A stretch of 56,079 nucleotides of DNA, from the IMG/VR virus record IMGVR_UViG_3300036945_000489, positions 1-56,079 of that record; one strand, written 5' to 3'. This DNA comes from a virus. Taxonomy: Duplodnaviria; Caudoviricetes. Of the stretch, positions 13,302 through 32,032 are shown piece after piece. The position numbers and the translations under genes are program-made. Below the pieces are notes generated by a model. It was given only the letters and a program-made list of their open reading frames with translations. It did no database searches and was not told the DNA's origin. The first letter of the stretch is position 1, and each line of letters begins with the position of its first letter.

Positions 13302-13322
13302 TGTGGATAACATTGTGTATAA
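13302..13322. promoter_or_regulatory. Tandem DnaA-box pair
   Basis: TGTGGATAA-cat-TGTGTATAA (reverse complement of TTWTNCACA). Confidence 0.7.
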
Positions 13323-13502: not shown

Positions 13503-13706
13503 ATGGAAGAAGAACGTGAAGTAAAACCTTGGGATCTGCTCAATCCTAAGAACTATAGCGAAGATATATCAGAAGTAGACCGTAGGTTTGCTATCTGTCA
13601 AAGCTGTGAATGGTTTACTAAACAACAACTGTGTTATAAGTGTGGATGTATTATGAAGCTAAAGACTAAGCTTGAACATGCTAGATGTCCTGTAGGTAAA
13701 TGGTAA
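13503..13706 (+). CDS. Small Cys-rich protein
   Basis: RR..IC.SC...CYKCGC..K......CP.GKW; TTGACA promoter directly upstream. Confidence 0.7.
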   Translation: MEEEREVKPWDLLNPKNYSEDISEVDRRFAICQSCEWFTKQQLCYKCGCIMKLKTKLEHARCPVGKW

Positions 13707-13800
13707 GCTTCATTTGCATCAAGAGAGCCTGTGGCTCTTATGTACCGTCGAAGTTTAGCTAACGCTAAATCGAAATATTTTTAACTCATAAGGAGAGATT

Positions 13801-13974
13801 ATGGAAACTAAAGAAATTAATGCATTTAGAGACTCAAAGCCACATCAGAAAGAAGATTGGCTAAGAACTGCATACATTACACAAGGAAAAGAAGTTGGCG
13901 ACATCGCTAAAGAACTTAATATCTCCGTTAAGCTTGTTCACACTCTTCTAAAAGAGTTCAATATAGTCCTATAG
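13801..13974 (+). CDS. Small helix-turn-helix DNA-binding protein (57 aa)
   Basis: AGGAG RBS; ...WLRTAYITQGKEVGDIAKELNISVKLVHTLLKEFNI; below the ORF-track cutoff. Confidence 0.7.
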   Translation: METKEINAFRDSKPHQKEDWLRTAYITQGKEVGDIAKELNISVKLVHTLLKEFNIVL

Positions 13975-14534
13975 GCCATCAGATGGACTACAGAGACATT
14001 ATCATAGGTGTTTTGACATTATATATATTAATAACACTTAAACGCTCCTAGGGCTACCCTGGAGATTTTTAGACACATAAGGAAATACAAATGATCGTTA
14101 ACATTATCGTTCTTCTATTGGCTATTTCCGTTATGCTTTTCTTATACAACGAAGAGGATCAGAATGATTAAGAAGTTTTTATACGTTATTGGTGGAGCTA
14201 CCCTTGCATTTTTATGGATGTTCACATTTTATTCCCTAGTTAGCTACCTAATTTCTTAAAATACCCACATCGTTATCATTTCGTTATATATATAAATCTG
14301 AAAAATCTGAAAAATTGTAAATTTGGAGAAATCTGAATATTTTATAGTTGTGTATGATACACGATCTGACAGAAAAACACCAATTTCAATAGTGAGCACA
14401 CAAACACCACCCCCACCCCACCCTATGCTAATTTGTTTACCTAATGTTTACCTAAATGTGCTTGACAAATGACTATCTATCTGATTGAATATATATAGAT
14501 AAAGAAATAGATAAAAGAAAGAAAGGAAGTCCAA

Positions 14535-14645
14535 ATGTTTTCAGTTTGCGAACTTTGCGATGTAGTAGTAGAGAAGATTTTCATCAAGGAAGAAGGCGAG
14601 TATGGTTGTGAAATCTGCTGGTCTGCCTATGGTGAGATTCACTAA
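14535..14645 (+). CDS. Early Zn-finger microprotein
   Basis: GAAAGGA RBS; MFSVCELCD...CEICWSAYGEIH. Confidence 0.65.
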   Translation: MFSVCELCDVVVEKIFIKEEGEYGCEICWSAYGEIH

Positions 14646-14711
14646 TAGACTTGACAATTGTCATACCTACCCCCTAGAATTAGAACATAACCTAAAAGAA
14701 AGAATCAGAAA

Positions 14712-14918
14712 ATGACTAAGTACGCAAAGACCTCAATCAAAGCCCTAATCCTATCTATCGCCCTAACTGTTGCTGTTGTATTGCTTGACGGCGTTCGCAA
14801 GAGTAATGATGTAGAGGCTCAGGTGTTGGGTGGTATGGCTGAGTTTGTTGTTGGAATGTTTGCCCTAATCGCTGTTGTTGGAACTATCGTTTACCTATTC
14901 GTTGGAGATGAGGCATAA
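14712..14918 (+). CDS. Early two-TM membrane protein
   Basis: Two hydrophobic segments; own promoter and RBS. Confidence 0.65.
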   Translation: MTKYAKTSIKALILSIALTVAVVLLDGVRKSNDVEAQVLGGMAEFVVGMFALIAVVGTIVYLFVGDEA

Positions 14919-15204
14919 TGTCAGACACTACCCCTAAACTATCAGTAGAAGAACTAGAAGTCCTTATCTTCCAGATTGACCTAATGCTAATGAATGAGAG
15001 TAAGTAAATGAATAAACTATTTGGCTTTACCTTCCTAGCCACCTTCCTAACGCTATCTACTAATGACTATTGGGGCTGGGCATTCATTGGTGTAGTAGCC
15101 CTGCTACTGATTGCCCCATTCACTACCCCTGAAACAATGGGTCAAAAGAAATCTAAGTAATACGGCGTGTCAGCTTGACAGATCCCTGGAAAGGGCCCCG
15201 ATCC

Positions 15205-15225
15205 TGTGGATAACTCTGTGGATAA
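15205..15225. promoter_or_regulatory. Tandem DnaA-box pair
   Basis: TGTGGATAA-ctc-TGTGGATAA. Confidence 0.75.
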
Positions 15226-15337
15226 CTATTGTTAAGTATCTACAAAAAAATCCCCTAAAGTTTGTGCGTTTTGGGCTTGACTTTTGTAAGTATCTATGAT
15301 TAACTATATATAGATAAAGAAAAGAAAGGAATTCCAG

Positions 15338-15478
15338 ATGAATTCACTAATGAAAGTAAATGTATCAGATGTAGCAATGTGCGAGATTTGCGACAACTAC
15401 ACCCCTAGAGTGTATGTAGAAGAATTTCAGCAAGAATGCTGTGAGATTTGCTACGACGCTTATGGCGAATGTAACTAA
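15338..15478 (+). CDS. Early Zn-finger microprotein, paralog of 14535..14645
   Basis: CEICD...CEICYDAYGE; near-duplicate upstream region ATATATAGATAAAGAAA..GAAAGGA. Confidence 0.65.
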   Translation: MNSLMKVNVSDVAMCEICDNYTPRVYVEEFQQECCEICYDAYGECN

Positions 15479-15514
15479 ATAACCCCTATAACTACTAAAA
15501 GAAAGGTAAGCATA

Positions 15515-15655
15515 ATGCCTACACTAACTAACGGAACCTTCGTTCCAGTTCACTACAATGACCGTTTCTATGAGGCTAACTGCCCTGAGTGTAATGAAGA
15601 GGTTTCTGCTCTTACTCACTCAGACATAGTAGAGATTCTAGACATTCACTGCTAA
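15515..15655 (+). CDS. Early microprotein (CPEC)
   Basis: GAAAGG RBS; 46 aa. Confidence 0.6.
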   Translation: MPTLTNGTFVPVHYNDRFYEANCPECNEEVSALTHSDIVEILDIHC

Positions 15656-15704
15656 GTGTCTGCCCCTAGTGCTACAATGTAAATAACTAAGAAAGGTAAA
15701 ACTA

Positions 15705-15872
15705 ATGAACATCAAAACACCTATGGACCTACCTACCCTACAGCGTGAGTATGACGCTATGGTTAAGGTTGCTATGCGTTCTATTGACGCAGGGGTTGAC
15801 CTATCCCCTGCTTTTGAGCGTGAACTAACCCTACTAATGAAGGCAGTAAAGGGAATGGGCGGAAAGGTATAA
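15705..15872 (+). CDS. Early hypothetical microprotein
   Basis: Promoter plus GAAAGG RBS; 55 aa. Confidence 0.6.
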   Translation: MNIKTPMDLPTLQREYDAMVKVAMRSIDAGVDLSPAFERELTLLMKAVKGMGGKV

Positions 15873-15930
15873 AAACTTTTCTACCCCACGGCGTGTCGTG
15901 TTGACAAACCAGCTTAGATCTGATCGGGCC

Positions 15931-15951
15931 TGTGGATAACTTTGTGGATAA
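15931..15951. promoter_or_regulatory. Tandem DnaA-box pair
   Basis: TGTGGATAA-ctt-TGTGGATAA. Confidence 0.75.
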
Positions 15952-16077
15952 CTTTTAAGATCGTTGTAAGAAACCTCCAAAAAAGTTTGTAGAAACTTAC
16001 AAAGAAAAAAGGCGTGTTTGTGCCATAAATGTCTGACCCCTGTGGTAATGTAGAACTATCAGATGAAAGGAAAACTA

Positions 16078-16218
16078 ATGGATAAAATGTGTGTTTACTG
16101 CGAGGGTGTTTTTACTAGCGATACTGTTGTATGCCCTAACTGTGATGAACTTGACGGCTTGCTACCGCTAGAAAAAGCGATTGACTACCTAGGGCTTGAC
16201 CCTAATGACTTTGAATAA
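16078..16218 (+). CDS. Early Zn-ribbon microprotein
   Basis: CVYC...CPNC; GAAAGGA RBS. Confidence 0.65.
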   Translation: MDKMCVYCEGVFTSDTVVCPNCDELDGLLPLEKAIDYLGLDPNDFE

Positions 16219-16269
16219 ATGTCATACCCCTCTGCTAAAATAAATTAACAAACAAAGAAAGGGCAACTA

Positions 16270-16449
16270 ATGCCAAAACCAAGAATGACCAAAAGCGAAA
16301 AAGCGTTTACTGAGAGAGTTCACGCAATTGTTTTTGCTACACCAGAAATCCGTAATGGCGTTTCATACCTTGACCGCAAAACTTTTGCTTTGTTGCCAGA
16401 AGTTGCTCAGAAACGATACCTAAATTTGTTAGCAACCAAGACACGCTAA
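16270..16449 (+). CDS. Early basic microprotein
   Basis: Promoter plus RBS; 59 aa. Confidence 0.55.
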   Translation: MPKPRMTKSEKAFTERVHAIVFATPEIRNGVSYLDRKTFALLPEVAQKRYLNLLATKTR

Positions 16450-16496
16450 ATGTCTGAGGGTAATGCTAAACTAAATCTATAAACAAAGGACAGAAA

Positions 16497-16646
16497 ATGT
16501 ATAACGATAACGAACTAGTAAAATGCTCAGACTGCCAAGCGTTAGGTCTGTTCGCACCTGACCTGTATGGCAACTCTGTGTTTCACCACAAAATCCCAAG
16601 CCAGCGAGTTGGCTACTTTACCTTTACAACTACTCACCTAATCTAA
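16497..16646 (+). CDS. Early microprotein (CSDC...HH)
   Basis: AAGGA RBS; 49 aa. Confidence 0.55.
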   Translation: MYNDNELVKCSDCQALGLFAPDLYGNSVFHHKIPSQRVGYFTFTTTHLI

Positions 16647-16658
16647 GGATAGAAAATA

Positions 16659-16832
16659 ATGATGACACGCAAAGACTATGTTGCTACCGCTGAAATTATC
16701 AAGTCATACAACCTACAACTGCCAGAAATTGTTTTGGAAAAGTTGGTAAATGATTTTGCTGAAATGTTCAAGGCTGATAACCCACGCTTTGACTCTAACC
16801 GTTTTCGTGTTGCTGCTATGGAGGTAAACTAA
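16659..16832 (+). CDS. Conserved phage early protein (MTRKDY...DNPRFD..RF family)
   Basis: Recognisable motif of small phage early proteins; function unknown. Confidence 0.7.
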   Translation: MMTRKDYVATAEIIKSYNLQLPEIVLEKLVNDFAEMFKADNPRFDSNRFRVAAMEVN

Positions 16833-17575
16833 TGGAGATTTTTCTAATCGCTTCTGCCCTGCTAAACATTCTAGGCGGAATAACCATTTTGCTTTTGCTA
16901 AAGAGTCTAAAGAATAATCTTCCACCTTTTTAGCGACACGCCAGGCCAGGACTTGACAAAAGCTCCTGGATCTGGTCGGGGGGCGTTATCCTATCGTTAT
17001 AAAAATCGTTAAGAAGATAGTTGCTTTTCCCCTGAATGTGTGATAGGTTTATCTTATAACGAAAGGTGAACTTATGGAAGACATGGCAGCTGATTTTGGT
17101 TGGGACCTCTTTGATGAGGAGGAGGGCTTCAATGTCCCTCTAACCTCTGAGGAGGTGGAGGCTGAGCGTCGCTCTATGGAGCAGGAGGCTCGTGACTCCA
17201 TGATTGGCGAGATGTATAATGCTCGCTACTCATTTGATTGACAAATCCAGGGAAACCTGGTCGGGCCCATCAAAGATCAAAAGTCAAGTCAATTAAGAAG
17301 ATTGAAAAACTTTTCCAGGATTATTAAATGTCAGAGGGTCGTGTTAGTATTTTAGTATGAGAAAAAGAACGAAGCCTTTAGGCAAGGTAAACGAAGCAAG
17401 ACGCAAGGCTGAGAGTCAAGCGTTATTCCACTCTATGCTAAAAGAGGGCAAGAAGCAGGTTGTTATCCCTAAGAAGTTTAAGGGGACACGCCAAGAAAAG
17501 TTTCGTGAAGCCCTTGACAATGAGTAACTAATCCTGTAAAATTATTTCATAACCCCAACAAGAAAGAGGTCCACT

Positions 17576-17881
17576 ATGGGCAGCAACTTTGTAGCAGAGA
17601 TTCAAGACACAGACCTATTCCCTAACTTTGATTTGCGTGACGCTATTGGCATGCACCTTAGAGGTAATTGCTATCCCCCTATCCCTATTGAGATGGCAGA
17701 CGTATGCGTTGAGGCTGTTTATGCCTATGAAGATGGTGACTACTATCGTATGCTTACCCTGCCTAAAATTGGTGATTTCCAAGTCCGCAACCGTGACGGT
17801 AGTATTGAAGTGACTGCAATGCAAGTAGTAGAGAACACACGTATTGAAGGATTCATTCAAGATATGGAGTATGAAGACTAA
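17576..17881 (+). CDS. Early hypothetical protein
   Basis: TTGACA..TAAAAT promoter, GAGG RBS; HL.GN.YPP motif. Confidence 0.7.
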   Translation: MGSNFVAEIQDTDLFPNFDLRDAIGMHLRGNCYPPIPIEMADVCVEAVYAYEDGDYYRMLTLPKIGDFQVRNRDGSIEVTAMQVVENTRIEGFIQDMEYED

Positions 17882-18141
17882 TGGAAGAGTTTGATAAACT
17901 AATGCAGACTATATTGTCTGAGGGCCTTGCTAAAATAGATTCACTATCAGAAGAGGAGCTATACCAATGGATGAGCAATACGTAGCAGAACTATTTGAGA
18001 TGTTTCACAATGGTGATATCAGTGCCAGTGATTTAATGGCGGATCTAGATATGGGTGGCTTTGATGGCGATCTAATTGACTATCTATAAATGTCATACCC
18101 CTAGTCTATAATAATCTTATACCCCAAAAGAAAGTAGCAAA

Positions 18142-18663
18142 ATGACTAACTATGTTGAGATTTATTCAGAACTAATCAAGAAGGCAACCTTTGGCCAGGT
18201 AGAGACTGCCAGTAAATGGTATGTTGACGCTGAGCGTATTGCAGAACAAGTTGCTAAGAACTTAGGTACCACACTTGATGTTGGTGCCAGTGTTATCAGT
18301 GCATTCTCACCTAGGGAGCGTTGGAGCGTAAACGTTGCACGTGCGATTGCATTCTCACTAGGCGAAGAGGTGACTTGCCTAAAGAACAACATAGTCATGG
18401 CTAACAATTCTTTGACCATGGGATTCAGTGCCCTAAAGGGATTGAAGACTAATGCATTCGCTAAGGCTATTGCAGGTGATGAGCAAGCGGTAGTGATTGA
18501 TGTTTGGATGTTGCGTGCCGTTGGTATTGAGAAGAAGACACCTAATCAGTCTTTGTATAATGAACTATCTAACGCTATCAAGGCTGCTGCCTTTGAAGTT
18601 GGTATGACCCCAAGAAGTGCACAGGCTTTGATTTGGATTATCATTAGGGGTAGTGCCCAATGA
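18142..18663 (+). CDS. Conserved phage protein, possibly DNA-glycosylase-like
   Basis: WY..A, SAFSP...W..N, KT.AF, VVIDVWMLR (resembles the HhH-GPD catalytic Asp region), QA..W. Confidence 0.55.
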   Translation: MTNYVEIYSELIKKATFGQVETASKWYVDAERIAEQVAKNLGTTLDVGASVISAFSPRERWSVNVARAIAFSLGEEVTCLKNNIVMANNSLTMGFSALKGLKTNAFAKAIAGDEQAVVIDVWMLRAVGIEKKTPNQSLYNELSNAIKAAAFEVGMTPRSAQALIWIIIRGSAQ

Positions 18664-19197
18664 TTGACTTATCCCTAAGCATATGGGATAATAAAAGGTG
18701 AATGTTTTAGTTGTTGGCGTATGCCTAATATTGTTGATGTTTATCTTATTTATCTTAGCCCCTTTGATAATAGGATTTATCTTTTTTATTGAGACCTTTT
18801 TTGGAGATTGGATTGAGCGTGGAAGAAAGAGAAACTGATGATGTGATGATGCTAGGATGCTTTATCTTTGCAGGTCCATTCTTTATTCTATTAGGCATAA
18901 TTTGCATTCTAGCTTTGTTTAGTTGACAAACTACCCCCAGGGGGCCCGACCACACCAAAGCTGATCTGTCAAGTCTTTAAGAAGATCTTTAAGAACCCCC
19001 AAAACTTTTTCAAATTCTTACGGCGTGTCGCTTTACAATGTCGTAGGGTGTGTGTATAATTGAGGTATAGCAAAAGAGATGTCGCAAAAATAAATAAAAA
19101 AAGTTTAGAAAAGTGCTTGACAAACTCCCCAAACTATGAAATAATAGATTATCAGCAAAAGTTGGTAATAAAATCAAAAAGAGAAAGAAGCAATACT

Positions 19198-19344
19198 ATG
19201 AACACTCTAACTGTTGGCTCACAGTTCACCACCGCTAAGTCAGGCGTTGTAGGCACTATTCAGGAAATCGTAAAGAACGCAAGTGGCTCACAGCGTGTCC
19301 GTCTAGATGTAAACGGACAGCCTCGCTGGACTACTGTAAAGTAA
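19198..19344 (+). CDS. Early small beta protein
   Basis: Probable start MNTLTVGSQF behind a TTGACA promoter. Confidence 0.65.
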   Translation: MNTLTVGSQFTTAKSGVVGTIQEIVKNASGSQRVRLDVNGQPRWTTVK

Positions 19345-19349
19345 TAACC

Positions 19350-19377
19350 TCTGCTGGGTATCAGATAAAACTGCCCA
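19350..19377 (+). ncRNA. H-type pseudoknot copy 1
   Basis: TCTG-CTGGGTAT-CAGA-TAAAAC-TGCCCA. Confidence 0.65.
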
Positions 19378-19411
19378 CCACAACCCACCCCTGAAAAGAA
19401 AGACTACCAAA

Positions 19412-19597
19412 ATGGCTACTAAGACCAAGATTGTTATCTCAACTGAGAAGTGGAACACCACCAAGGGTGAAATCTACAAGGCAGTTGTTCGCACCGCAGA
19501 CGGCAAGTTTCTAGGTGCTACTAATCAGACAACTAACATTCCTGTAAAGGCTAAGCGTAAGGCATCAAGCCCTCGTTTCTTCCTAATGGGCAAGTAG
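19412..19597 (+). CDS. Early basic hypothetical protein
   Basis: ORF with purine-rich RBS. Confidence 0.65.
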   Translation: MATKTKIVISTEKWNTTKGEIYKAVVRTADGKFLGATNQTTNIPVKAKRKASSPRFFLMGK

Positions 19598-19603
19598 TTG
19601 CTA

Positions 19604-19630
19604 ATCCTGAGTATGATGTAAAACTGCTCA
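19604..19630 (+). ncRNA. H-type pseudoknot copy 2
   Basis: ATC-CTGAGTAT-GAT-GTAAAAC-TGCTCA. Confidence 0.65.
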
Positions 19631-19699
19631 CCAATAAATGTCAGACCCCTCTGATAGAATAATGAAGTAAACAAATACCCCTAAAGAAAGAAGTATCTA

Positions 19700-20149
19700 A
19701 TGGCTCGTGCCTTATCTGTAAAAGTTCCAACTGCCGCTGTAATTTCCCAGATTGAGTTGGCTATCGCTGACATTGACGCTAAGGTTGCGTCTTATGCTGG
19801 TGATGTTGAGAAGTATAACCTAGAACTAGAAATCTACAAGAACGAAGTTGCTACCGCCATCATCAAGTATGTTGGTGCTAACACTAACAAGATTGGTTAT
19901 GACTACACCTCAGAAATCCGTATCTCACAAGGACACTCTGGCAAGTTGGAACTAGCGTTTGACGCTGACAAACTTGTTGGCTTCCCTGTTCGCCCAACTG
20001 AGCCTAAGAAGCCTAATCAGTCTGAGTGGTATGGCAACAAGCACATCAACCGCAAGGAAGTCTTGGAAAGCAACCTACGCATTTTGCGTATGACCACCCA
20101 AGAGGAAATCAACGCCTCATCTTACTCGTCTGTAATGGACTTGCTCTAA
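19700..20149 (+). CDS. Early hypothetical protein
   Basis: 149 aa with its own TGTC promoter. Confidence 0.75.
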   Translation: MARALSVKVPTAAVISQIELAIADIDAKVASYAGDVEKYNLELEIYKNEVATAIIKYVGANTNKIGYDYTSEIRISQGHSGKLELAFDADKLVGFPVRPTEPKKPNQSEWYGNKHINRKEVLESNLRILRMTTQEEINASSYSSVMDLL

Positions 20150-20159
20150 GATGAAAAAC

Positions 20160-20188
20160 GACCTGAGTATGTCTATGTAAACTGCTCA
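20160..20188 (+). ncRNA. H-type pseudoknot copy 3
   Basis: GAC-CTGAGTAT-GTC-TATGTAAAC-TGCTCA. Confidence 0.65.
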
Positions 20189-20198
20189 CCACAAACCT

Positions 20199-20327
20199 CT
20201 TGTAAGTGTCCTAGGCAACGGCTTACAAGCGTGAGGGCTAACACGATAACGAAGCAAGTCTTAGACAACCGCAAGGCTCTAAGGCGAAACTAATCCTCCT
20301 GCCTAAATAACAGGGGGATTTCTTTTT
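20199..20327 (+). ncRNA. Multi-hairpin structured RNA ending in an intrinsic terminator
   Basis: Three hairpins, then ATCCTCCTG/CAGGGGGAT followed by TTCTTTTT. Confidence 0.5.
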
Positions 20328-20576
20328 GACTTGACAACTGATCCAAAAATGGTCGGGCAGCTCTAAGTGATAGAAAAAATAGTTTAAGAAACACCATATT
20401 AAATCCCCATAATGTCAGACCCCCCTGGTATAGTTATAGTAATCAAAGAAAGGAACCCCAATGCAAGGAACGTTTAGCATCAACTTTTGTGAGACCTGTA
20501 ATGACTTTGGCTTAGTGTCAGTGGTCAATGGTAAACTAATGGTTCAGTCGTGTGAATGTGTAAAGGGAGATAACTA

Positions 20577-20771
20577 ATGGCTTATGTTGAGTATGATGGA
20601 TTGTATTTTTCAGAGGATGGCAACTATGGTGGTGGCAAGATTATTATTGCTGACCATGACGCTTTCACTGAGGAGCAGATGGAACTACTAGGTTCACTTG
20701 GCGATAACTCTCGCTATGACTATGCCAATGCCGTTTTGAATGGCCAAGATGTTTCTGAATGGGAGGACTAA
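20577..20771 (+). CDS. Acidic early protein
   Basis: GGAG RBS; D/E-rich. Confidence 0.65.
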   Translation: MAYVEYDGLYFSEDGNYGGGKIIIADHDAFTEEQMELLGSLGDNSRYDYANAVLNGQDVSEWED

Positions 20772-20772
20772 G

Positions 20773-20931
20773 ATGGGATACCAATACGAAGTTTCTTATG
20801 TTGCTAACTACTATGTAGTGAGTGATGAAAAACTAACTGATGAGGAAATCATTGAGCAGGCTATTGAGCAACACGAAGACTTGCCAGATGGCAGTTGGAC
20901 AGTTGAGTTGGAGGAGGAAACAGTTGACTAA
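20773..20931 (+). CDS. Acidic early protein
   Basis: GGAGG RBS; start MGYQYEV. Confidence 0.6.
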   Translation: MGYQYEVSYVANYYVVSDEKLTDEEIIEQAIEQHEDLPDGSWTVELEEETVD

Positions 20932-21254
20932 GATAGTTTTAGATGTAGACGCAGACTACAACGGTAGCAACCTTGTAGAACTATGTGAGTTGCTACTAAC
21001 AGAGATTCAGGAGTTTCGTCAAGAGCGTGTTGGCCTTGACATCAATGATGGCTTTGGTGACTACCTTGAGGGACTTATCTCTGCTAGGGAAGTTATGCTT
21101 GGAAGACTTGGAGTACCCCTTGAAGTTTACATGGATGGAGATTGCTAATGAACTTTGACCACCTTACCCCAAGTATGTGGGAGACCCTACGCAAGTTTGA
21201 CTACTACCAACTGAGGAAGTTTGCTCAGATGTTTGAGCCACTGGAGGAGGACTA

Positions 21255-21458
21255 ATGGCTGAATACAGAGATGTAGTGATCGAATGGCACGATGAACCTG
21301 GAGTTCAATACGCAACTACCGTTTCACTTGACGGTGAGTGGAACTCTCTAGACGAGGATGATGATAACATCTTCTTCTACTTTTCAAGTGAGTCAGAGTT
21401 TGAAGAGGCAAAGCAAGATGGCGACAACGGGTATGAGTTCAGGATTGTGGAGGAGTAG
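21255..21458 (+). CDS. Acidic early protein
   Basis: GGAGG RBS; D/E-rich. Confidence 0.65.
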   Translation: MAEYRDVVIEWHDEPGVQYATTVSLDGEWNSLDEDDDNIFFYFSSESEFEEAKQDGDNGYEFRIVEE

Positions 21459-21460
21459 AA

Positions 21461-21664
21461 ATGGCAAGAATCGCTAGAGCAAGTGTTGTGTTTGAGTTCC
21501 AACTAGATGAGGACCCATTGTTTGAGATGGACCAACATGAATGGTCAGATGAACAACGCCTGACTTATTTCAAAGAGATGATGGCAGAGGACCTAATCAC
21601 CATGTCCTATGGTTCTGGAGCAGAACTAATCAACGCTATCGATGTGGAGATTCTAAATGTCTGA
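21461..21664 (+). CDS. Acidic early protein
   Basis: GGAG RBS. Confidence 0.65.
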   Translation: MARIARASVVFEFQLDEDPLFEMDQHEWSDEQRLTYFKEMMAEDLITMSYGSGAELINAIDVEILNV

Positions 21665-21814
21665 GGGTAATGCTAAAGTAGACACTATGAACAAATGCTA
21701 CCAATGTGAAGAACCATTAGACCGTGACCCAGTAGACGAGGTTCACCCCCTATGTAATGATTGCCAGTACGAGTTTGATGACTGGCTACAAAATGAGATG
21801 ATGAGGTTCAACTA

Positions 21815-22006
21815 ATGCCTATGTTCTATGTAAAGATGATGATTGAGTTCTCAGGTGAGATTGAAGCAGACAGCGAAGCAGACGCAGAGCAAAAGGCTTG
21901 GACCAGTTGGGGAGACACTATGGATAATGAGATAACTTATGACGGTGTCTATTCCGTAGATGTTGAAGAGATTGAAGAAGAAGATGACGAAGAAACAACT
22001 GAGTAG
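21815..22006 (+). CDS. Highly acidic early protein
   Basis: IEADSEADAE motif, poly-E/D tail. Confidence 0.65.
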   Translation: MPMFYVKMMIEFSGEIEADSEADAEQKAWTSWGDTMDNEITYDGVYSVDVEEIEEEDDEETTE

Positions 22007-22147
22007 GATTCTTGAAGAGTGGAGTGAAGAGTTCCACAAAGACTATATGGATAGTTATAATCAAGACTTACGCTCTGGCCACTACCGTGACTTATTGTCA
22101 GAGGTTATTGATAGAATAGATGCGTTGAACGCTTACAACAAAAAGAA

Positions 22148-22573
22148 ATGGTGGAAGAAATGAACGAGAGCATGCACCCAGTACTAGAGACACTAAAGAC
22201 ACGCATTGAACTACTTGAGCAAGAAGTGCAGGCAAAGCAGGACAACGTTGACAGTCTTCGCAATGATTTCAAACTGCTACAGGACCGTGGCATTCAGTAT
22301 GCTGAGCGTGTAAAGACTGTTGTCTATGACCTATACAAGGACGGTGGCTACGATGAAGACACCCTACTTGCAGTCATGCGTAATCTTGATATTGACACAC
22401 GTGCAAGCAAGAAGTTTGAAGTCAACGTGACTTTTGAGATAGAACTTGAATATGCCCTAGGTGAAGAGATTGACAAGAGCAACCTTGAGTGGGACCTAGA
22501 GTTTGATGTCAAGTCTGGAGACTATGAAGTTCTTGACTACAGGTCTGATATCCTTTGGAGCAACGAAGTTTAG
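22148..22573 (+). CDS. Early coiled-coil hypothetical protein
   Basis: ORF downstream of the TGTC promoter at 22096. Confidence 0.65.
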   Translation: MVEEMNESMHPVLETLKTRIELLEQEVQAKQDNVDSLRNDFKLLQDRGIQYAERVKTVVYDLYKDGGYDEDTLLAVMRNLDIDTRASKKFEVNVTFEIELEYALGEEIDKSNLEWDLEFDVKSGDYEVLDYRSDILWSNEV

Positions 22574-22585
22574 TAGGGGTACTAA

Positions 22586-22612
22586 AGGCCTGAGCAAGCT
22601 TGACAACTGCTC
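22586..22612 (+). ncRNA. H-type pseudoknot copy 4 (overlaps module TTGACA)
   Basis: AGGC-CTGAGCAA-GCTT-GACAAC-TGCTC. Confidence 0.55.
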
Positions 22613-22769
22613 CCCTTTGGGGACCGAGCAGATCAAAGATCCTTTGTCAACCCTTTAAGAAAGACTAATTATTTTTCCAGAAATATGCTAAATAACCTTG
22701 ACAATGTCAGTGGGTTCCTGTAAAATAGACTTATCACTCAGAAATCCCCTAAAAGAAAGTTGGCTCCCT

Positions 22770-23783
22770 ATGGCTCACGATTTGGAAACCGTAAACGGTC
22801 AGACTGCTTTCGCTTCATTGCGACAGCCTGCTTGGCACAACCTTGGCACAGTATTTCAGGACGAGGTAAACACTAACGAGATGTTGGCGTTGGCTCACCT
22901 TGACAACTGGAATGTTCGCCTTGAAGATGTTGCTATCCCTGATGGCTTTGCTTCAGACAAGGGCTACTCATTCGTGACACGCACGAACCCATTTGACCGC
23001 AACACTAATGATGTTCTTGGCGTTGTTGGTGAACGTTATGTTCCTCTTCAGAATGAAGACCTATTTAGTTTTGGTGACAACCTGCTAGACGGTGGTGGAC
23101 GTTGGGAAACTGCTGGCTCTATCAAGGGTGGACGTGTTGTCTTTGGCTCTATCGCATTGACTGACGGAATCACACTTGACCCTAACGGACGTGCTGACAA
23201 GATTGATAACTATCTTCTAATCAACACCTCTCACGATGGCTCTGTTGCTATTCAGGCTTCTATCACACCTGTTCGTGTTGTTTGTGCTAACACTCTAAAC
23301 TTGGCTTTGTCTGCTGTGAATGGCAAGAAAGATGTCAAGCAAACTTTCAAGATTCGCCACACCCAGACCGCAGAAGGCAAAATCGCTGTGGCACGTGAGG
23401 CTCTTGGACTTGCTCACAAATACATTGACGAGTTCTCTTCTATTGCTAACGCTATGATTGAAACTGAAATCACTAAGGCTCAGTTTGACGACATTGTTGC
23501 TCTTGCCTACCCTGCCCCTGCTAAGGACGCTAAGGGTTCACAAAAGAAACACGATGGCAAGATTGACCTGCTTCAGTCTATCTATGTTGGTGACTACAAC
23601 AACACCATTAGCGGAACTGCTTGGGGTGCTTTCAATGCTCTAACAGAACGCCTAGATTGGTATCGCAACTCACGTGGCGGAAACAACGAAAGCATTTATG
23701 CTTCTGCTTCAGGCTTTGACCCAGTAATCAACGCTGAGAAGAATCGCCTAATGAAGATTGTTCGCCAAACTGTAATGGCATAA
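22770..23783 (+). CDS. DUF932/DUF945 family phage/plasmid protein
   Basis: MAH...PAWHNLG, LGVVG.RY.PLQN, ETAGS..GGR.VF, NTSHDGS, P.RVVCANTL, TAWGAFNA.TE..D. Confidence 0.85.
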   Translation: MAHDLETVNGQTAFASLRQPAWHNLGTVFQDEVNTNEMLALAHLDNWNVRLEDVAIPDGFASDKGYSFVTRTNPFDRNTNDVLGVVGERYVPLQNEDLFSFGDNLLDGGGRWETAGSIKGGRVVFGSIALTDGITLDPNGRADKIDNYLLINTSHDGSVAIQASITPVRVVCANTLNLALSAVNGKKDVKQTFKIRHTQTAEGKIAVAREALGLAHKYIDEFSSIANAMIETEITKAQFDDIVALAYPAPAKDAKGSQKKHDGKIDLLQSIYVGDYNNTISGTAWGAFNALTERLDWYRNSRGGNNESIYASASGFDPVINAEKNRLMKIVRQTVMA

Positions 23784-23944
23784 CAATAAACAACACGCCT
23801 ATCCCTGGACTTGACATCTGGGGGTAGGCTGTGGCCGATCACATCTAAATAGGATTGTCAAGCTTAAAAATAGTATTAAGATATGCTTGACTTTTTCCCA
23901 GAATTTTGAGATAATTGATTATCAAATAGAAAGTAGGAATTCTA

Positions 23945-24442
23945 ATGGGTACACGCAATCTAACAGTAGTAAAAGACACAGAGGGTGAAGTTGTAGTAGC
24001 CCAGTATGGACAATGGGATGGCTATCCATCTTACACAGGAGCAGGAATCATTGGCTTCCTATCTGATTCACAGAATGTTGACTACCTAAAGGCTGGCCTT
24101 CACTCTGTTCGTTTTGTTTCAGATGATTACGTAGATAAGATTTATAACGAGGTTTCTAACCGTGCAGGTGATGAGGCTTTCAAAGAGGCATACCCTTCGC
24201 TAACCAGGGATGTGGGATGGCAGATTCTTGAGATCATTCGTGACAAGATGAATGTGCCTCTAGTAAACTCTATTGACTTTGCAGCGGATGAACTATTCTG
24301 TGAAGGGTACTATGAGATTGACTTCCAGACTAATAAGTTTATTAGTAAGTGGAATGGTATGACTATTGAGCACTCTATCAATGCCCTTCCAATGGTGGAA
24401 GATTACGTAGAAAGTTTTGAAAAAAGCTTGACAAACGCCTAG
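23945..24442 (+). CDS. Conserved phage early protein (MGTR...WDGYP family)
   Basis: MGTRNLT...QYGQWDGYPS motif. Confidence 0.75.
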   Translation: MGTRNLTVVKDTEGEVVVAQYGQWDGYPSYTGAGIIGFLSDSQNVDYLKAGLHSVRFVSDDYVDKIYNEVSNRAGDEAFKEAYPSLTRDVGWQILEIIRDKMNVPLVNSIDFAADELFCEGYYEIDFQTNKFISKWNGMTIEHSINALPMVEDYVESFEKSLTNA

Positions 24443-24485
24443 CCCTATGGCATAATGTATATACACCCCAAAAGTAAGGAAACCC

Positions 24486-25031
24486 ATGCACGTTTTACAA
24501 TGGATTGCTGTAAAGAACCCTGCCACATTTGATATCGAAGAGCTGGACACTTGCAAGCAGGAAGCCCATGACCTTGTCAAATCTAAGTTTGAAGAAATGT
24601 ATTCTGAGAGCGAAGGTCTTGGCGGTTGGTCTGACTGGTATATTGTAGGTGGGGGTAGGTGGAATCCTGACCCTGATAACCAATATAAAGAAGACGACTA
24701 CTCTATGGTTGTGTCTTATGGTGCAGAGCCTGATAAGTTTATTGAAACTATCAACAATGCTATTGAAGAGCGTAAGAATGAGTTTGCTACCTACCGTGAC
24801 CGCTTTGAGAAACAGAACATTGATATCTCTGCTAGTTTAGATAAGTATGACGGAACTACAGATTACTCATTCGACATGTATGAACTAAATAAACTAATTG
24901 ACATGTTGCAGGGTAAGTGGGATATGAACTCATACTTCTACGACCTAAATAACTGGTCAACAAATCCTAAATGGGTGCTTGACAATCTCGACGATTCATG
25001 GTATCTTATACCTGTAGACTTCCACTTCTAA
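24486..25031 (+). CDS. Early hypothetical protein
   Basis: MH...WSDWY.VGGGRW...PVDFH motif; TTGACA promoter. Confidence 0.7.
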   Translation: MHVLQWIAVKNPATFDIEELDTCKQEAHDLVKSKFEEMYSESEGLGGWSDWYIVGGGRWNPDPDNQYKEDDYSMVVSYGAEPDKFIETINNAIEERKNEFATYRDRFEKQNIDISASLDKYDGTTDYSFDMYELNKLIDMLQGKWDMNSYFYDLNNWSTNPKWVLDNLDDSWYLIPVDFHF

Positions 25032-25041
25032 GGAGACCCCA

Positions 25042-25458
25042 ATGTCTAAATTCTATACCTATTCCTCTTGGGCAGATACATTCAAGCCAACCAAGAACCA
25101 CATCACTAATGGTATTGATACTCACTTTGAAACCTATGGTGAGGAGCAAGAGTTCGTACGTACAACTGACCCTAAGTTTATCTGGACTGAGGTAGACGGT
25201 GACAGTGGCACTTACATTGTTGCTGGCTATCACTATGTGAATCGCATTCATTACTACATCACTGAGAATCCTTGGGATGATGAGATGACTGAAGTACCTA
25301 CTTGGGTATACCGCCAGTGTGACTGTGCTGAACAGAACGAAGACGGCGACTACGACCCTGACTGCCCAGAGTGTGATGAGGGAATGATTGACATTGACTG
25401 TGACACTGTGGTAGCATTGAAAGACATCTATGGAGAGGACGCACCAATTGTCAGTTGA
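25042..25458 (+). CDS. Hypothetical protein with C-terminal CxC/CxxC
   Basis: FETYGEE..FV...IWT...G.HYVNR.HYYITE; AGGAG RBS. Confidence 0.7.
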   Translation: MSKFYTYSSWADTFKPTKNHITNGIDTHFETYGEEQEFVRTTDPKFIWTEVDGDSGTYIVAGYHYVNRIHYYITENPWDDEMTEVPTWVYRQCDCAEQNEDGDYDPDCPECDEGMIDIDCDTVVALKDIYGEDAPIVS

Positions 25459-25611
25459 GATTCTAAACCCAGACGTAGTATGTGCGGACTGTGGCACTGA
25501 GTATACACCAGATGGTGAATGGGTTGGCGACACATTTATGTGTGACAGCCAGCAAGAGTATTGCTTGAACTGCTGTGGTTGTGAAGACCATGACATTACT
25601 GAAGAAGGGCC

Positions 25612-25968
25612 GTGGTACTAATGGCTATTCCAGATCTTGATACAGCCCTAGGCAGGCTAATAGACTATGACCTAAACATCTATCACCTAGAAGAAGAGAA
25701 CGACGAAGGTGAGTATGAGTACACTGACCAATGGTACGTTGACATCTATGAGTATCTAGATAGAGACCAGATGCATGTTGCTGGCCCATTCATGATTACT
25801 GATAACCAGAGGGACCTGCTCCAGCTTGGTACAGGAGGTTACTTCACTGACGATGACTCTTGGTATGGCATGTGGGGATTCATGGCTGACTACAAAGGCA
25901 AGTTACTTCCAGAACTGCTAAGCATTCTGCAGTCATTGCCTAAGTACAAGGATGAGACCTTGTTCTAA
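25612..25968 (+). CDS. Acidic hypothetical protein
   Basis: ORF in early operon. Confidence 0.6.
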   Translation: MVLMAIPDLDTALGRLIDYDLNIYHLEEENDEGEYEYTDQWYVDIYEYLDRDQMHVAGPFMITDNQRDLLQLGTGGYFTDDDSWYGMWGFMADYKGKLLPELLSILQSLPKYKDETLF

Positions 25969-26304
25969 TTAAATAAACTTCCATGTTGAGACTACTCCAT
26001 GGAATACATATGGTAGGGGTACCATATGAAAGGGTATGGTTGGTAGGGGTACCATCATATCTTAGAGGGGCAGAGCGAGAGACATTTCCTACTTTCACTC
26101 TTGCTCTCCCCTCTTATTTTTGCTATAATGAGTTGAGGTATAAAATGAGAAAGCACGCACTAACAGAGGAACAAAAGACAGCAGTAAAGATAACCAAACT
26201 ACTAGACAGCGTATCACTTGACTTGGACAGAGTGGGAATTGAGATTGCCAGAATAAGACCAACAACAATGTATAACCGCCTAATGCTCGTAGCAGAATCA
26301 GCAG

Positions 26305-26586
26305 TTGAAGAACAGGAAAATAATGGAAGAAACGACCTACGCTAATAAGTGTGCCATCCTAGCAGACCTATGGATGACCTATCGCAATGATGAACAGTTC
26401 CAAGACTTCATTGAGTATAACGACTTGGGCTTGCCCTTGTCCTATGCCATTGATAGTGAGATTGTAAAGTCAACAGAGATGGCTCAGCGTTTCATTGAAG
26501 AGGCATTCAGTCTCTTGCTTGCTGGACTAGACATTGCTGAAGACGCAGGGTATGAAACTATGGATGACATCCTAGGGGGACTATAA
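26305..26586 (+). CDS. Hypothetical protein
   Basis: DF.EYNDLGLPL motif; distant paralog of 26615..26878. Confidence 0.6.
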   Translation: MKNRKIMEETTYANKCAILADLWMTYRNDEQFQDFIEYNDLGLPLSYAIDSEIVKSTEMAQRFIEEAFSLLLAGLDIAEDAGYETMDDILGGL

Positions 26587-26614
26587 TGTCAGAGGGGTAT
26601 GGTAAGGTAGTAGT

Positions 26615-26878
26615 ATGAATAAGATAACTAAAGACCAGTTCCTAGACATTTGCTTTGCTATCAACGAAGCCTATACAGATGTTCGTATGGACTACATTGG
26701 TGATAAGACTATTTACAATCAGGAAGTGTTTGACCAAGTGTTGGTTGAGGACTATTTGTATTGTGGTCTAGCCCAATGTATCTATCTTGACATTGTTCCT
26801 TATGACACTTTGACTGATGAAGCAATCAACGCAATTATGGAACTGTATCAGGACTACTTGGCATTAGAGCTAATCTAA
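26615..26878 (+). CDS. Hypothetical protein, probably leaderless
   Basis: ATG 6 nt after the -10 of the TGTC promoter at 26587. Confidence 0.6.
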   Translation: MNKITKDQFLDICFAINEAYTDVRMDYIGDKTIYNQEVFDQVLVEDYLYCGLAQCIYLDIVPYDTLTDEAINAIMELYQDYLALELI

Positions 26879-26959
26879 AAGAAAACAGGATTGCCCCTTG
26901 ACAAAGGGGTTTTCTTGTGCCCGAACCAATGTTATCAAACTGTTATCAAACCATATTGA

Positions 26960-27670
26960 CAAAAAGACATTACGAAGGTATAATATATTTCCCCGAATGT
27001 CCAAACATTTGTATATCAAAAACAAATTTGTTTTGCATATAAGACATTACGATGAGATCAGAAAAATCGTGGAAGTTTGTATGTGTTATTACTACCTATA
27101 GGGATAATGGGTATAGCTTTATCTACCCCAGCAAAGCTGGTGGCCAAAGGCCAGGGTATAAGAGGATCATCTTTGATACCAAATCCCCCTAGTATAAGTA
27201 ATAACACATAGGCAGATATGGGATTACGAAGAACATTAAAAAATCCCAGAAAGTCTATATGTTTTATATATATTTATGTATGTTTGTTTAAATAAGTATA
27301 TAGTTTGTTATCATTTTGTTATAAAAAATATGGCCTATTTGGGAATAGCTGGGATATAAATATTTGATAACAATGTTTGGATATGGTGGTTTGGGGGTTG
27401 ACAAATGATTACGTTTATGGTAAGAGGTGTTCTATTCTCCACTAATCTCCACTTCCATCCACTTATTAACACTCTGTGTATAACTCAGTAAGATATTTAA
27501 GCTAACAAACACCATCAGAACATACTCTAATAAGCCATAGAAGCCTCATAGAGAGGTTTAAATGTCTGGGGGTATTAGATCATGCATATGGGGGTTATGT
27601 CTTGATATGGAGGATATCAGGAGATGTGGATAACTCTGATATCTGTGGATAAACCTGTGTATAACCTTAT
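26960..27670. other. Candidate replication origin / non-coding control region
   Basis: ATTACG repeats, AT-rich tract, 10-bp-phased TCCACT x3, DnaA boxes at 27475, 27625, 27644, 27656. Confidence 0.5.
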
Positions 27671-27819
27671 CTATTTAACCAAGCAAGACCAAATGTTGCT
27701 ATGATTAAAATAGCCAAACCAATGTATTGTTCCATAGGGTATTCTTTCTACTAGGTGTATCTTATACTAGGGTTAATGAGAGTATCTCTTGATACCCCCA
27801 GAAAATGCTATAATTTATT

Positions 27820-28428
27820 ATGCACAAACACAACAACATCCTGTTGGTCTCATTAGGTTCTAATTGTTTGCAAGAAGCTTTTAATGAGCAGTTCAGCGAA
27901 GAGGACTTTCCTATGGAGAGAGTCTCTGGCTTCTTTGATTGGATGATCACATCTCCACAATCCATTATTCAGTTTTTAGAACACTGTAAGGCTGGCACTG
28001 TCTTTGATGCTTTGTCTAATGTGGATAACTACATTGAGGTTGTTAATCCAGATGGAGGAATCTTCTATAAGAACACTCTCTTTGATTGTATGTACATCTG
28101 GCACCCTGAACAGTTTCGTAAGAATCCAGACTTCTCTGATACAGTTATCCATAAGCTAAACAATCTATTTAACCATGCTGGTAAAAGATATTTTATACTT
28201 AACAATACTAGTGGACAAATTGAAGAAAGCATGCTTCGTGTAAATGAAGATCCAGCTAAGTTTATTATCACTGCATACCAACATCTTCAGATCAAGTCCT
28301 TGCTCAAGGAGCTTTTCAATGGAGAGCTAATCCTAATAACAAACCAAGAGAAGTCTATAGGTATATCAGATCCTGTAGGCTACTTTAGTCTGGAATCGTT
28401 GTTGTCTATATTTAGTTTAGAATCATAG
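27820..28428 (+). CDS. DUF1796-like putative papain-type cysteine peptidase
   Basis: VSLGSNC and FFDWM motifs, later H. Confidence 0.55.
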   Translation: MHKHNNILLVSLGSNCLQEAFNEQFSEEDFPMERVSGFFDWMITSPQSIIQFLEHCKAGTVFDALSNVDNYIEVVNPDGGIFYKNTLFDCMYIWHPEQFRKNPDFSDTVIHKLNNLFNHAGKRYFILNNTSGQIEESMLRVNEDPAKFIITAYQHLQIKSLLKELFNGELILITNQEKSIGISDPVGYFSLESLLSIFSLES

Positions 28429-30228: not shown

Positions 30229-30453
30229 TCACTTGGTGTCTGAGAATAGCGAGACTTCTTCATAGTCTCCAGCGTCATCTACCCTTGGGTAGGACTCTTG
30301 ACATCCATAGCAATAGTGTGTAGGCATATCTTTGCCAACTGTGCAACCACCTAGGGCAATACCCTCAGATCTTGCCATGTCAATTAGTTTAGGTGTAGGA
30401 AAGCCATAGATTACATTAACTAGGTCGTGACCACACTCTGGACAATTATTCAT
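30229..30453 (-). CDS. Small Zn-binding protein
   Basis: CPECG...IYG.P...LGGC...C..C. Confidence 0.65.
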   Translation of the reverse strand: MNNCPECGHDLVNVIYGFPTPKLIDMARSEGIALGGCTVGKDMPTHYCYGCQESYPRVDDAGDYEEVSLFSDTK

Positions 30454-30487
30454 TATTCTAGTATAGCATAGAATAAGTGGTATAATA

Positions 30488-30772
30488 GTGATTATGGCTA
30501 CTATTCATAATCTTTATACCCTTAGCGATACAGTCGCTACACGTCTAACTCCTCTAGGAATTCACTCTGGAATGGACATTACCCTTCAAAATGTAAATGC
30601 ATCTAAGTATGTATATATTGGTGGAGAAGGTGTCACCAATGCAAACTACGGATACCGCATCCCACCTAATGGATCTGTTGGCTTTGAGCTACCAGGAAAA
30701 GATTCTCTCTATGCAATTGGAGAGATTGACGGACTCAATCTTGCAGTCATCAAGACCAGCCTGGAGGGATAA
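30488..30772 (+). CDS. Hypothetical virion-associated protein
   Basis: TGGTATAAT promoter; coupled to downstream collagen gene. Confidence 0.6.
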   Translation: MIMATIHNLYTLSDTVATRLTPLGIHSGMDITLQNVNASKYVYIGGEGVTNANYGYRIPPNGSVGFELPGKDSLYAIGEIDGLNLAVIKTSLEG

Positions 30773-31976: not shown

Positions 31977-32032
31977 CCATATAATTATAACATTCGTTCT
32001 GATATAATTAATCTAAACAAGAAAGATTTTTA

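Follow-up and report, generated by a model that had tools for sequence, protein, structure and literature searches.

The early region of an uncultured virulent phage (Caudoviricetes; IMG/VR record IMGVR_UViG_3300036945_000489) is nearly cleared of restriction-type palindromes, while short elements between its gene cassettes are rich in some of them. We analysed one contig of 56,079 bp with three gene arms (hereafter the window). Its block of small early genes is under strong, palindrome-specific purifying selection at the DNA level, which is sharply bounded at both ends and conserved in the clade. The modules A to I, located in the spacers of this block, represent a conserved composite cis element that occurs clade-wide and in either orientation, and they are enriched in the sites GATC, AGCT, GGCC and CCWGG (the four site types below). 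The contrast between the purged block and the site-rich modules is real, and the explanations offered for it below are tentative. The block and the two of its genes that are referred to repeatedly are as follows (O/E, observed/expected ratio).

14400..27100, plus strand: palindrome-purged early block, 41 small rightward genes with their promoters and leaders (O/E determined per gene)
22770..23783, plus strand: DUF932 gene (Pfam PF06067, E 2e-51), the longest purged gene
18142..18663, plus strand: DUF7178 gene (Pfam PF23802), inside the block and weakly purged (O/E 0.63)

Palindrome depletion in the early block

According to the initial annotation, the stretches 14400-15160, 15300-15890, 16060-16930 and 22698-23783 are free of the six sites GATC, AGCT, GGCC, CCWGG, TGCA and CATG. 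Indeed, not one of them occurs in these 3,309 bp, where about 62 are expected from their summed frequency of 18.6 per kb in the window. For coding sequences (CDSs), expected numbers were derived from synonymous-codon shuffles, which keep the protein and the codon usage. Under this null model the six sites are missing from the genes at 14535-16933 (sub-block E1; 0 vs 22.3 expected, z -6.2, 0 of 300 shuffles as low) and from the DUF932 gene (0 vs 16.8, z -5.2), and they are depleted in the genes at 19199-22573 (E3; 16 vs 43.8, z -6.2) and at 23945-26878 (E4; 28 vs 47.1, z -3.8). The weaker depletion that had been noticed at about 17-19 kb is also found, with 23 sites vs 24.6 expected in 17074-18663. 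The 35 minus-strand genes (28,188 nt) are not depleted (638 vs 594.5, z +2.4). The early CDSs are thus depleted relative to the rest of the genome, and the effect is both stronger and broader than initially claimed: it concerns nearly all four-base palindromes and the whole block of 12.5 kb.

When all 16 four-base palindromes were pooled, depletion was detected in every early sub-block (z -3.9 to -11.7, codon shuffles). For six-base palindromes the same holds in four sub-blocks of five (z -2.2 to -4.3), the exception being 17074-18663 with z -1.4. In early CDSs (10,050 nt), non-palindromic 4-mers show a median O/E of 1.04 and palindromes one of 0.37; among all 256 words TTAA, GATC, AATT, TCGA and AGCT hold ranks 1, 3, 4, 5 and 6 in the order of depletion. 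The DUF932 gene illustrates the extent of the purge: it contains 8 palindromic 4-mers where 49.6 are expected, and these are copies of just two words, ACGT (6) and CTAG (2). The intergenic DNA of the block outside the modules is purged as well, with 3 sites of the four types vs 16.9 expected; their O/E is 0.19 in block CDSs and 0.18 in the non-module spacers. For 4-bp palindromes in the block, dinucleotide shuffles gave an O/E of 0.39.

The limits of the purged region coincide with the first gene, which starts at 14535, and the last gene, which ends at 26878. At the level of single genes, the O/E of the 16 palindromes is below 0.85 in 39 of the 41 block genes and does not exceed 0.40 in 27 of them. 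Outside, it amounts to 1.1 for the two genes at 13503-13974 and to 0.78-1.25 for the nine genes at 27820-32725, and it ranges from 0.68 to 1.25 in the flanking genes overall, the 35 leftward genes included.

A few words are avoided in the whole window: neither CCGG nor CGCG occurs, the single GCGC belongs to a tRNA gene, and strong depletion also affects TCGA, TCGG and CCGA, with 44 copies of YCGR vs 345 of RCGY. It appears that the genome outside the block avoids just those sites which are always lethal to the lineage, namely CCGG, CGCG, GCGC and most TCGA/YCGR. The forbidden words differ among relatives: AGCT is forbidden in the loci L015 and L023 and in most distant loci, GATC together with GGCC in L030 and L031.

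These relatives are 70 related loci in IMG/VR, on contigs of up to 124.5 kb, which were reached via the DUF7178 protein. Profiles of 24 of them revealed a block of 10-12 kb with O/E 0.2-0.6 and flanks near 1 in close relatives, and a weak or absent block in distant ones. For single genes, with orthologue sets that vary by gene, the O/E of a 149-amino-acid (149-aa) gene is 0.18 in 26 close relatives (31-77% amino-acid identity) and 0.22 in 4 distant ones, that of the DUF932 gene is 0.36 in 24 close and 0.70 in 29 distant relatives, and that of the DUF7178 gene is 0.78 in 33 close and 0.81 in 36 distant relatives. Since low O/E is kept across diverged orthologues, the purge is maintained by selection, in a gene-dependent manner.

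Site-rich modules between the early cassettes

The nine modules are built on a common plan. Often a GGCGTGTC box comes first, followed by TTGACA, a spacer of 14-16 nt and an 8-mer with a central CG, the core (GGTCGGGC and variants, in either orientation), for which the consensus across the clade is the palindromic GSYCGRSC. In modules A and B, the 3' part is a pair of DnaA-type boxes with a 3-nt gap; in D, E, G and H it is a mirrored TGTCAA, located about 45 bp from the TTGACA; modules C and I carry other repeats with a 12-bp spacing downstream of the core. A TTAAGAA-type word ends the plan, and a real promoter-like site is located 60-100 bp further on. The modules are listed below, where sites refers to the four types and the fold z to comparison with shuffled sequences.

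15163..15237, plus strand: module A, GGCGTGTC box, TTGACA (15175), 15-nt spacer, core CCCCGATC, DnaA-box pair; 5 sites vs 1.2 expected
15889..15963, plus strand: module B, GGCGTGTC box, TTGACA (15901), core GATCGGGC, DnaA-box pair; 5 sites vs 0.7 expected
16941..17015, plus strand: module C, long hairpin with TTGACA (16953) in the loop, core GGTCGGGG; fold z -3.9; 6 sites vs 1.0 expected
17226..17300, plus strand: module D, TTGACA (17238), spacer hairpin with a GAAA loop, core GGTCGGGC
18911..18985, no single strand: module E, two-sided, TTGACA at 18923 (plus) and 18972 (minus) with core GCCCGACC between them
20319..20393, plus strand: module F, hairpin with a T-run upstream, TTGACA (20331), core GGTCGGGC; 2 sites vs 0.6 expected
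22588..22662, no single strand: module G, two-sided (22600 plus, 22650 minus), core GACCGAGC, upstream of the DUF932 gene; fold z -2.0
23799..23873, no single strand: module H, two-sided (23811 plus, 23861 minus), hairpin with TTGACA in the loop, core GGCCGATC; fold z -2.7
26886..26960, plus strand: module I, terminator-like hairpin with TTGACA (26898) in the loop, core GCCCGAAC, pair of a repeated 11-mer; fold z -2.7

Of the 44 YCGR words of the window, one is found in each of the nine cores, a tenth lies beside a TTGACA at 13454, and five are in T-arms of tRNA genes. Module C has orthologous copies in L001, L025 and L026. In the survey of 71 sources (the window and the 70 loci), 107 unique module instances were found in 27 sources, and the spacer measures 15 nt in 81 and 14 nt in 23 of the 112 raw hits.

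The site lists which the initial annotation gave for modules A, B and G are correct. Altogether, the nine 75-bp module regions contain 34 sites of the four types, while dinucleotide shuffles gave 8.7 (0 of 1000 reached 34) and GC-matched windows outside the block 8.1, so that local GC content does not account for the enrichment. This enrichment is selective. All 16 palindromes taken together are not enriched (37 vs 29.9, a value reached by 79 of 1000 shuffles), TGCA, CATG, GTAC, ACGT, CTAG and TCGA are missing altogether (0 vs 9.0 expected), and so are CCGG, CGCG and GCGC, which are the words forbidden or nearly so throughout the window. Moreover, module I carries none of the four site types. 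With respect to their placement, 2 of the 34 sites are on TTGACA, 9 on the core, 10 in the spacer, 8 downstream and 5 upstream. Since 11 of the 34 overlap TTGACA or the core, overlap with conserved motifs accounts for about one third of the sites and not for all of them; 18 are situated wholly in variable module parts, where 3.4 are expected (0 of 1000 shuffles reached 18).

GATC deserves special attention, because 13 of its 16 occurrences in 14400-23900 are in or at the edge of modules. Therefore the purge of the genes would be useless against an enzyme cutting at GATC, unless the module sites are protected, breaks at them are harmless, or the purge is otherwise caused. Within the spacers of close-clade modules, no 4-mer is more over-represented than GATC (34 vs 4.0, z 15.8). 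The word is often paired at a distance of 4-27 bp, beside DnaA boxes. It is also kept despite sequence turnover: 47 of the 63 unique close-clade modules contain it, with 59 distinct flanks at 66 sites.

The modules follow the forbidden words of their lineage. In distant relatives the core is GGCCGGGC or GCCCGGGC, which contain CCGG, and much of the CCGG of a locus is then located in its modules (7 of 8 in L049, 6 of 7 in L051, 7 of 10 in L048 and 7 of 15 in L046). In the CCGG-free clade the core is GGTCGGCC, GGCCGACC or GGTCGACC, that is, the TCGG form GGTCGGSC. L030, which has neither GATC nor GGCC, uses the core GGTCGGGC and lacks GATC in its four modules, and in the lineages forbidding AGCT (most distant relatives) the modules are without AGCT. 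AGCT is purged from the block and present in the modules in the window, L024, L025, L026 and L032, and it is neither purged nor found in modules in L001, L007, L008, L017, L022, L027 and L029. Both groups are phylogenetically clustered, the former five being the window and its closest relatives, and thus the coupling may represent a single phylogenetic event.

Regarding the nature of the element, its orientation relative to the genes is not fixed, as all seven modules of L046 point backwards and two-sided forms occur. Recognition as double-stranded DNA is therefore favoured over a directional promoter or an RNA signal. A directional promoter of the form TTGACA-N14/15-core was set aside on these grounds. 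A strand-specific RNA element serving antitermination or processing was set aside as well, considering the reversed modules of L046, the two-sided forms and the lack of an Rfam match. Intrinsic terminators were also considered, and a scan called a GC-rich hairpin with a T-run in module I alone of the nine, with module F located just 3' of such a structure.

Hairpins are nevertheless frequent: they occur in 83 of the 107 modules, and 72% have one in the spacer, compared with 41% after shuffling of the spacers. Stems of at least 7 bp which enclose TTGACA are present in 11 of the 107, compared with 2% of controls in which arms were exchanged between loci, and 25 of the 107 fold with z below -2. 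In the window, four of the nine modules have single-sequence folds at z <= -2.0 and the other five are indistinguishable from shuffles. RNAalifold detected no covarying consensus hairpin in 18 loop-type modules, because the hairpins differ in register.

A second promoter-like motif was noticed in the same region. It comprises a box of 12-13 nt of the ATGTCAGACCCC type, 4-6 nt and TAnnnT, and it is present in the window at 16029, 16219, 16450, 17329, 18090, 19638, 20412, 21664 and 22703. Many copies exist in L063, where a hairpin and a GGCCCGGGC word usually precede it. The motif may be a middle-class or phage-specific promoter.

DnaA boxes, cassette variation and genome context

Pairs of DnaA boxes separated by 3 nt occur four times in the window, where 0.03 are expected. 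Two belong to modules A and B, and the others flank the block:

13302..13322, plus strand: DnaA-box pair with 3-nt spacer, about 1.1 kb left of the block
27644..27664, plus strand: DnaA-box pair with 3-nt spacer, in the non-coding stretch of about 720 bp that ends the block

This non-coding stretch (27100-27820) harbours DnaA-type boxes at 27475, 27625, 27644 and 27656 together with AT-rich repeats, a layout that recalls a replication origin or the injection-stop region of T5. At the opposite side of the block, the non-coding DNA at 14270-14420 contains three direct repeats of an 11-mer of the AAATCTGAAAA type and a C-rich run. It is 74-81% conserved in L004, L005, L006, L025 and L028 and could be a genome end or a control site.

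At least 15 joints were found in contigs from other samples. In the runs X4 and X5, position 15226/15227 is joined to 15982; modules A and B thereby become adjacent, and the three genes of the intervening cassette are lost. At least one further joint in other samples ends just past the core of module I. At 19345-19604, 21148-21741 and 26618-26930 single small genes are skipped or replaced in other samples, that is, the presence or absence of cassettes is polymorphic. The ends of homology blocks are not enriched at modules, with 4.3 endpoints per 100 bp vs 9.0 in other spacers; the idea that modules are preferred homology breakpoints is therefore not supported. The contigs of L007, L011, L012, L013, L003, L036 and L038 end 0.04-1.8 kb downstream of the DUF7178 gene, matching the position of module E. 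Probably, the dispersed modules break short-read assemblies.

The complete relative G001 (the record behind L002, 124.5 kb) has an exact direct terminal repeat of 8,517 bp (1-8517 and 116024-124540). Both of its ends are inside open reading frames, for which reason it was rejected as a biological terminal repeat. Its ends do not coincide with those of the purged block, which it covers only in part, and an assembly overlap is the probable origin.

The three arms of the window are:

1-13 kb, leftward: tail and virion genes
13.5-26.9 kb, rightward: about 43 very small genes
arm right of the early run, leftward: 10 tRNA genes, ThyX, a glycosyltransferase/nucleotidyl-transferase/HAD group, a peptidase-type lysin, nrdB and nrdA

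Five relatives are rated 93-100% complete at 93-125 kb, and the window is therefore a partial genome (56 kb of approximately 93-125 kb) of a virulent phage from freshwater-type metagenomes. The runs with window DNA are labelled as freshwater, riverine or shale-gas metagenomes, and none of them is recorded as RNA. In the phage collection, megablast with 14400-23900 and tblastn with a 672-aa protein gave no match, and the matches that were obtained are distant: the DUF932 and DUF7178 proteins (best matches to actinophages) and a virion structural protein (2-1198, minus strand), whose best matches are cyanomyoviruses of Synechococcus with 43-47% identity. The host signals are thus in conflict, the virion protein being cyanomyovirus-like and the DUF932 and DUF7178 proteins actinophage-like. 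Rfam detected just the 10 tRNAs, with no match in the early block or the modules. Among the early-arm genes of the window are a group-1 glycosyltransferase (32718-33767), a nucleotidyl-transferase (42791-43498), a HAD hydrolase (43488-44114) and ThyX (35521-36225). This set may have a part in sugar-nucleotide or DNA-modification chemistry, with a possible bearing on the tolerance of sites in late DNA.

Known systems and possible explanations

The closest parallel to the block is the first-step-transfer DNA of T5. As stated in passages on T5-like phages, restriction acts there only through sites in the first-step-transfer DNA, and the injection-stop region contains eight DnaA boxes in pairs 3 nt apart, whose proposed function is a hypothesis put forward in a preprint. 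In the first-step-transfer DNA, tiny genes for host takeover fill about 10 kb and a large non-coding stretch comes next; the block likewise consists of small genes and ends in non-coding DNA. The four DnaA pairs of the window have the same 3-nt spacing, and the gene order to the right of the block (tRNAs, thymidylate synthase, nrdB, nrdA, on the opposite strand) is similar too. Kinship with T5 (Demerecviridae) was examined by means of the terminase and discarded, because no similarity was found in five relatives; profiles of two terminase Pfam families likewise found nothing in them, and Terminase_6N matched T5 only. We know of no TTGACA-N14/15-GSYCGRSC element in T5. Thus the resemblance concerns logic and layout and not membership.

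A similar logic was described for Murciavirus (T7-like) phages, in which, according to the passages available, the early-injected region decides on Type I sensitivity and restriction is argued to select at a sub-genomic scale (PMC12455610, NAR 2025). The same authors state there that the location of avoidance within genomes had not been addressed previously. That case concerns one Type I motif and was established by experiment, whereas in the window nearly all 4-bp palindromes are affected and the evidence is statistical. In conjugative plasmids, as far as the available passages go, the leading region is not consistently depleted. Genome-wide restriction-site avoidance in phages (Rusinov et al. 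2018, PMC6286503) is matched by the lack of CCGG and CGCG and the near-absence of GCGC and TCGA in the window and its relatives. In contrast to such whole-genome avoidance, the purge is limited to the block and the modules show the opposite trend.

The modules, for their part, recall the PeSLs of T4-like phages, which are described in passages of PMC4122927 and PMC2839356 as composites of a stem-loop and an early promoter flanking variable open reading frames; "degraded" PeSLs retain the stem-loop and the -35 and lack the -10. Both elements combine a stem-loop with TTGACA between small open reading frames of hyperplastic early regions. PeSLs are implicated in the gain and loss of cassettes; for the modules, one module-module deletion is seen, while the ends of homology blocks are not enriched at them. 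PeSLs have -35 and -10 at a spacing of 17 nt, whereas the modules are without a -10 hexamer and have the GSYCGRSC core there at a fixed spacing. In addition, the modules differ from PeSLs in occurring in both orientations and in two-sided forms, in being joined to DnaA-box pairs and, as far as those passages describe PeSLs, in being enriched in restriction-type palindromes.

The explanation we favour, tentatively and with somewhat less than an even chance, is avoidance of Type II restriction confined to early DNA, combined with boundary elements that are either occupied or tolerant of breaks. The block would be the DNA that is needed before the phage's own counter-defence exists, and avoidance of Type II sites would be concentrated there. 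The modules could be binding sites in double-stranded DNA for a putative dimeric factor at the palindromic core, with host RNA polymerase (sigma region 4 at TTGACA) and DnaA (at its boxes) as putative host partners. They may serve to delimit and regulate cassettes, and cassettes may be gained and lost at them. Roughly a third of the sites of the four types would be forced by the core and the TTGACA junction, and the rest would lie in variable spacers and be favoured in this sub-clade. Sites in modules would be tolerated either through occupation of the element or because early expression continues despite a break between transcription units. The protein shielding of modules proposed in the initial annotation is thus retained in part: the purge of genes alone cannot protect the DNA from an enzyme cutting at GATC, given the GATC sites at modules. 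Protection of every module site is unlikely, since words forbidden in a lineage are lost from its modules and even the core is altered. For the same reason, and as none of about 9 expected other palindromes is present and the core shifts from the CCGG to the TCGG form, the modules are no general refuge for sites and are unlikely to be deliberate decoys, and the soaking up of enzymes by modules is not supported.

Several observations weigh against the favoured explanation. No anti-restriction gene was identified in the block, where DUF932 and DUF7178 are the sole recognised families (among the larger early proteins, 10 were without a PHROG match and 8 of these also without a Pfam match). The purge is uneven, with DUF7178 and two small mid-block genes escaping it. 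Protein binding at the modules is putative; their TTGACA sites have no -10 partner, and the promoter scan called none of them. Motif constraint by itself leaves the five-fold enrichment in variable parts and the restriction to four site types unexplained, and the enrichment in GATC depends on the lineage (7 of 44 distant modules, none of 3 in L007). Concerning the T5 analogy, the first-step DNA of T5 is only mildly depleted (0.84 vs 0.95-0.99), in contrast to the block with its O/E of 0.39 (dinucleotide shuffle). The large terminase of T5 finds nothing in the five relatives, and the window itself is without packaging genes. Finally, the ends of G001 do not support the block as first-entering DNA, and a permuted headful genome is possible.

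Next in our ranking, and unlikely though worth serious consideration, is the idea that the modules would be pads on which the methylation of GATC, CCWGG, GGCC and AGCT is read, so that parental and new DNA or the previous host could be distinguished and early transcription timed or gated; the same words would be cleared from the rest of the block in order to confine the signal. All four words are targets of solitary methyltransferases of hosts. This would fit well with the selective enrichment of exactly four site types in the absence of six other palindromes, with GATC as the top spacer word of the close clade, with its pairs beside DnaA boxes, and with the variable positions and flanks of GATC, which indicate that the word itself recurs and not a longer motif. 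The coupling between AGCT purge and AGCT in modules (five lineages, vs seven without either) points in the same direction, although one phylogenetic event could underlie it. However, the five complete relatives gave no hit for a C5 methyltransferase and two Dam-like hits, both sub-threshold, modules function in lineages in which they contain no GATC, GGCC or AGCT, and the purge of AATT, TTAA, TATA and other palindromes is left unexplained. A related but quite improbable variant holds that the sites of a few widespread 4-5-bp systems (GATC, AGCT, GGCC, CCWGG) are confined to pads between cassettes, beside DnaA boxes, as programmed break points or methylation sensors. Host breaks or marks would then fall just between self-promoted cassettes, the early genes would stay expressible, the early programme would be set by the pads, and the AGCT coupling would be an evolutionary trace of this arrangement. 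The mobility of cassettes, also unlikely and placed third, would account for the purge without recourse to the order of entry: cassettes exchanged among lineages with different restriction systems would carry the union of avoided sites, late genes and fast-evolving modules would carry those of the present lineage, and module sites would be by-products of a self-complementary, GC-rich design. The relatives are indeed mosaics of shared and unshared cassettes, their forbidden sites differ (AGCT; GATC plus GGCC; CCGG/CGCG/GCGC), the loss of the A-B cassette and other cassette-sized joints are seen in other samples, the same absolute avoidance applies to modules and late genes, and hairpins abound in modules. 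On the other hand, the DUF932 and 149-aa genes are strongly purged although they are widely conserved residents, the DUF7178 gene is conserved to the same extent without being purged, and the density of homology endpoints is lower at modules than in other spacers. Moreover, an origin as by-products predicts all palindromes and not four types with 0 of about 9 others, and since the five-fold enrichment in variable parts has to be considered too, a purely structural by-product is insufficient.

A sacrificial role of the sites is improbable, and it ranks fourth. Cuts would fall between self-promoted cassettes, whose units would stay expressible, or the sites would keep enzymes occupied. In line with this, transcription units including promoters and leaders are purged, so that unpurged DNA is confined to the gaps between units, a promoter of its own follows every module, and the enrichment in variable parts is positive. 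But without repair or redundancy of the block an internal break of the genome is still lethal, restriction enzymes turn over, which makes their soaking up implausible, sites forbidden in a lineage are missing from modules too, and module I has none of the four types. Least probable of all, and hardly credible in our opinion, is that the purge is driven not by host restriction but by an early nuclease of the phage itself, which would destroy host DNA at short palindromes. A proposal of this kind exists for T5 A1 in a part of the T5 literature, and a block-limited pattern would suit DNA that is present while the enzyme acts. However, the 10 larger early-block proteins searched (of 41) include no nuclease family, one enzyme would not select against nearly all 16 palindromes, and late DNA has the sites at normal frequency.

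The finding is of importance for several reasons. Analyses of restriction avoidance in phages mostly treat whole genomes, and here a sharply bounded, clade-conserved domain of 12.5 kb is described, with the strongest local purge among those compared (O/E approximately 0.2-0.4 vs 0.84 in T5 first-step DNA). Avoidance in first-exposed DNA is already known in its logic from T5 (first-step DNA) and from T7-like phages (leading region). The pattern could serve to predict, from sequence alone, which part of the genome of an uncultured phage is exposed first. The behaviour of the modules is not predicted by simple avoidance theory, considering that four site types are in four-fold excess, six are absent, and the core mutates with the forbidden site of the lineage. 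Based on these properties, the modules point to a DNA-binding function at the boundaries of early genes, and it is tempting to speculate that they may link host methylation, DnaA and early control in this phage clade.

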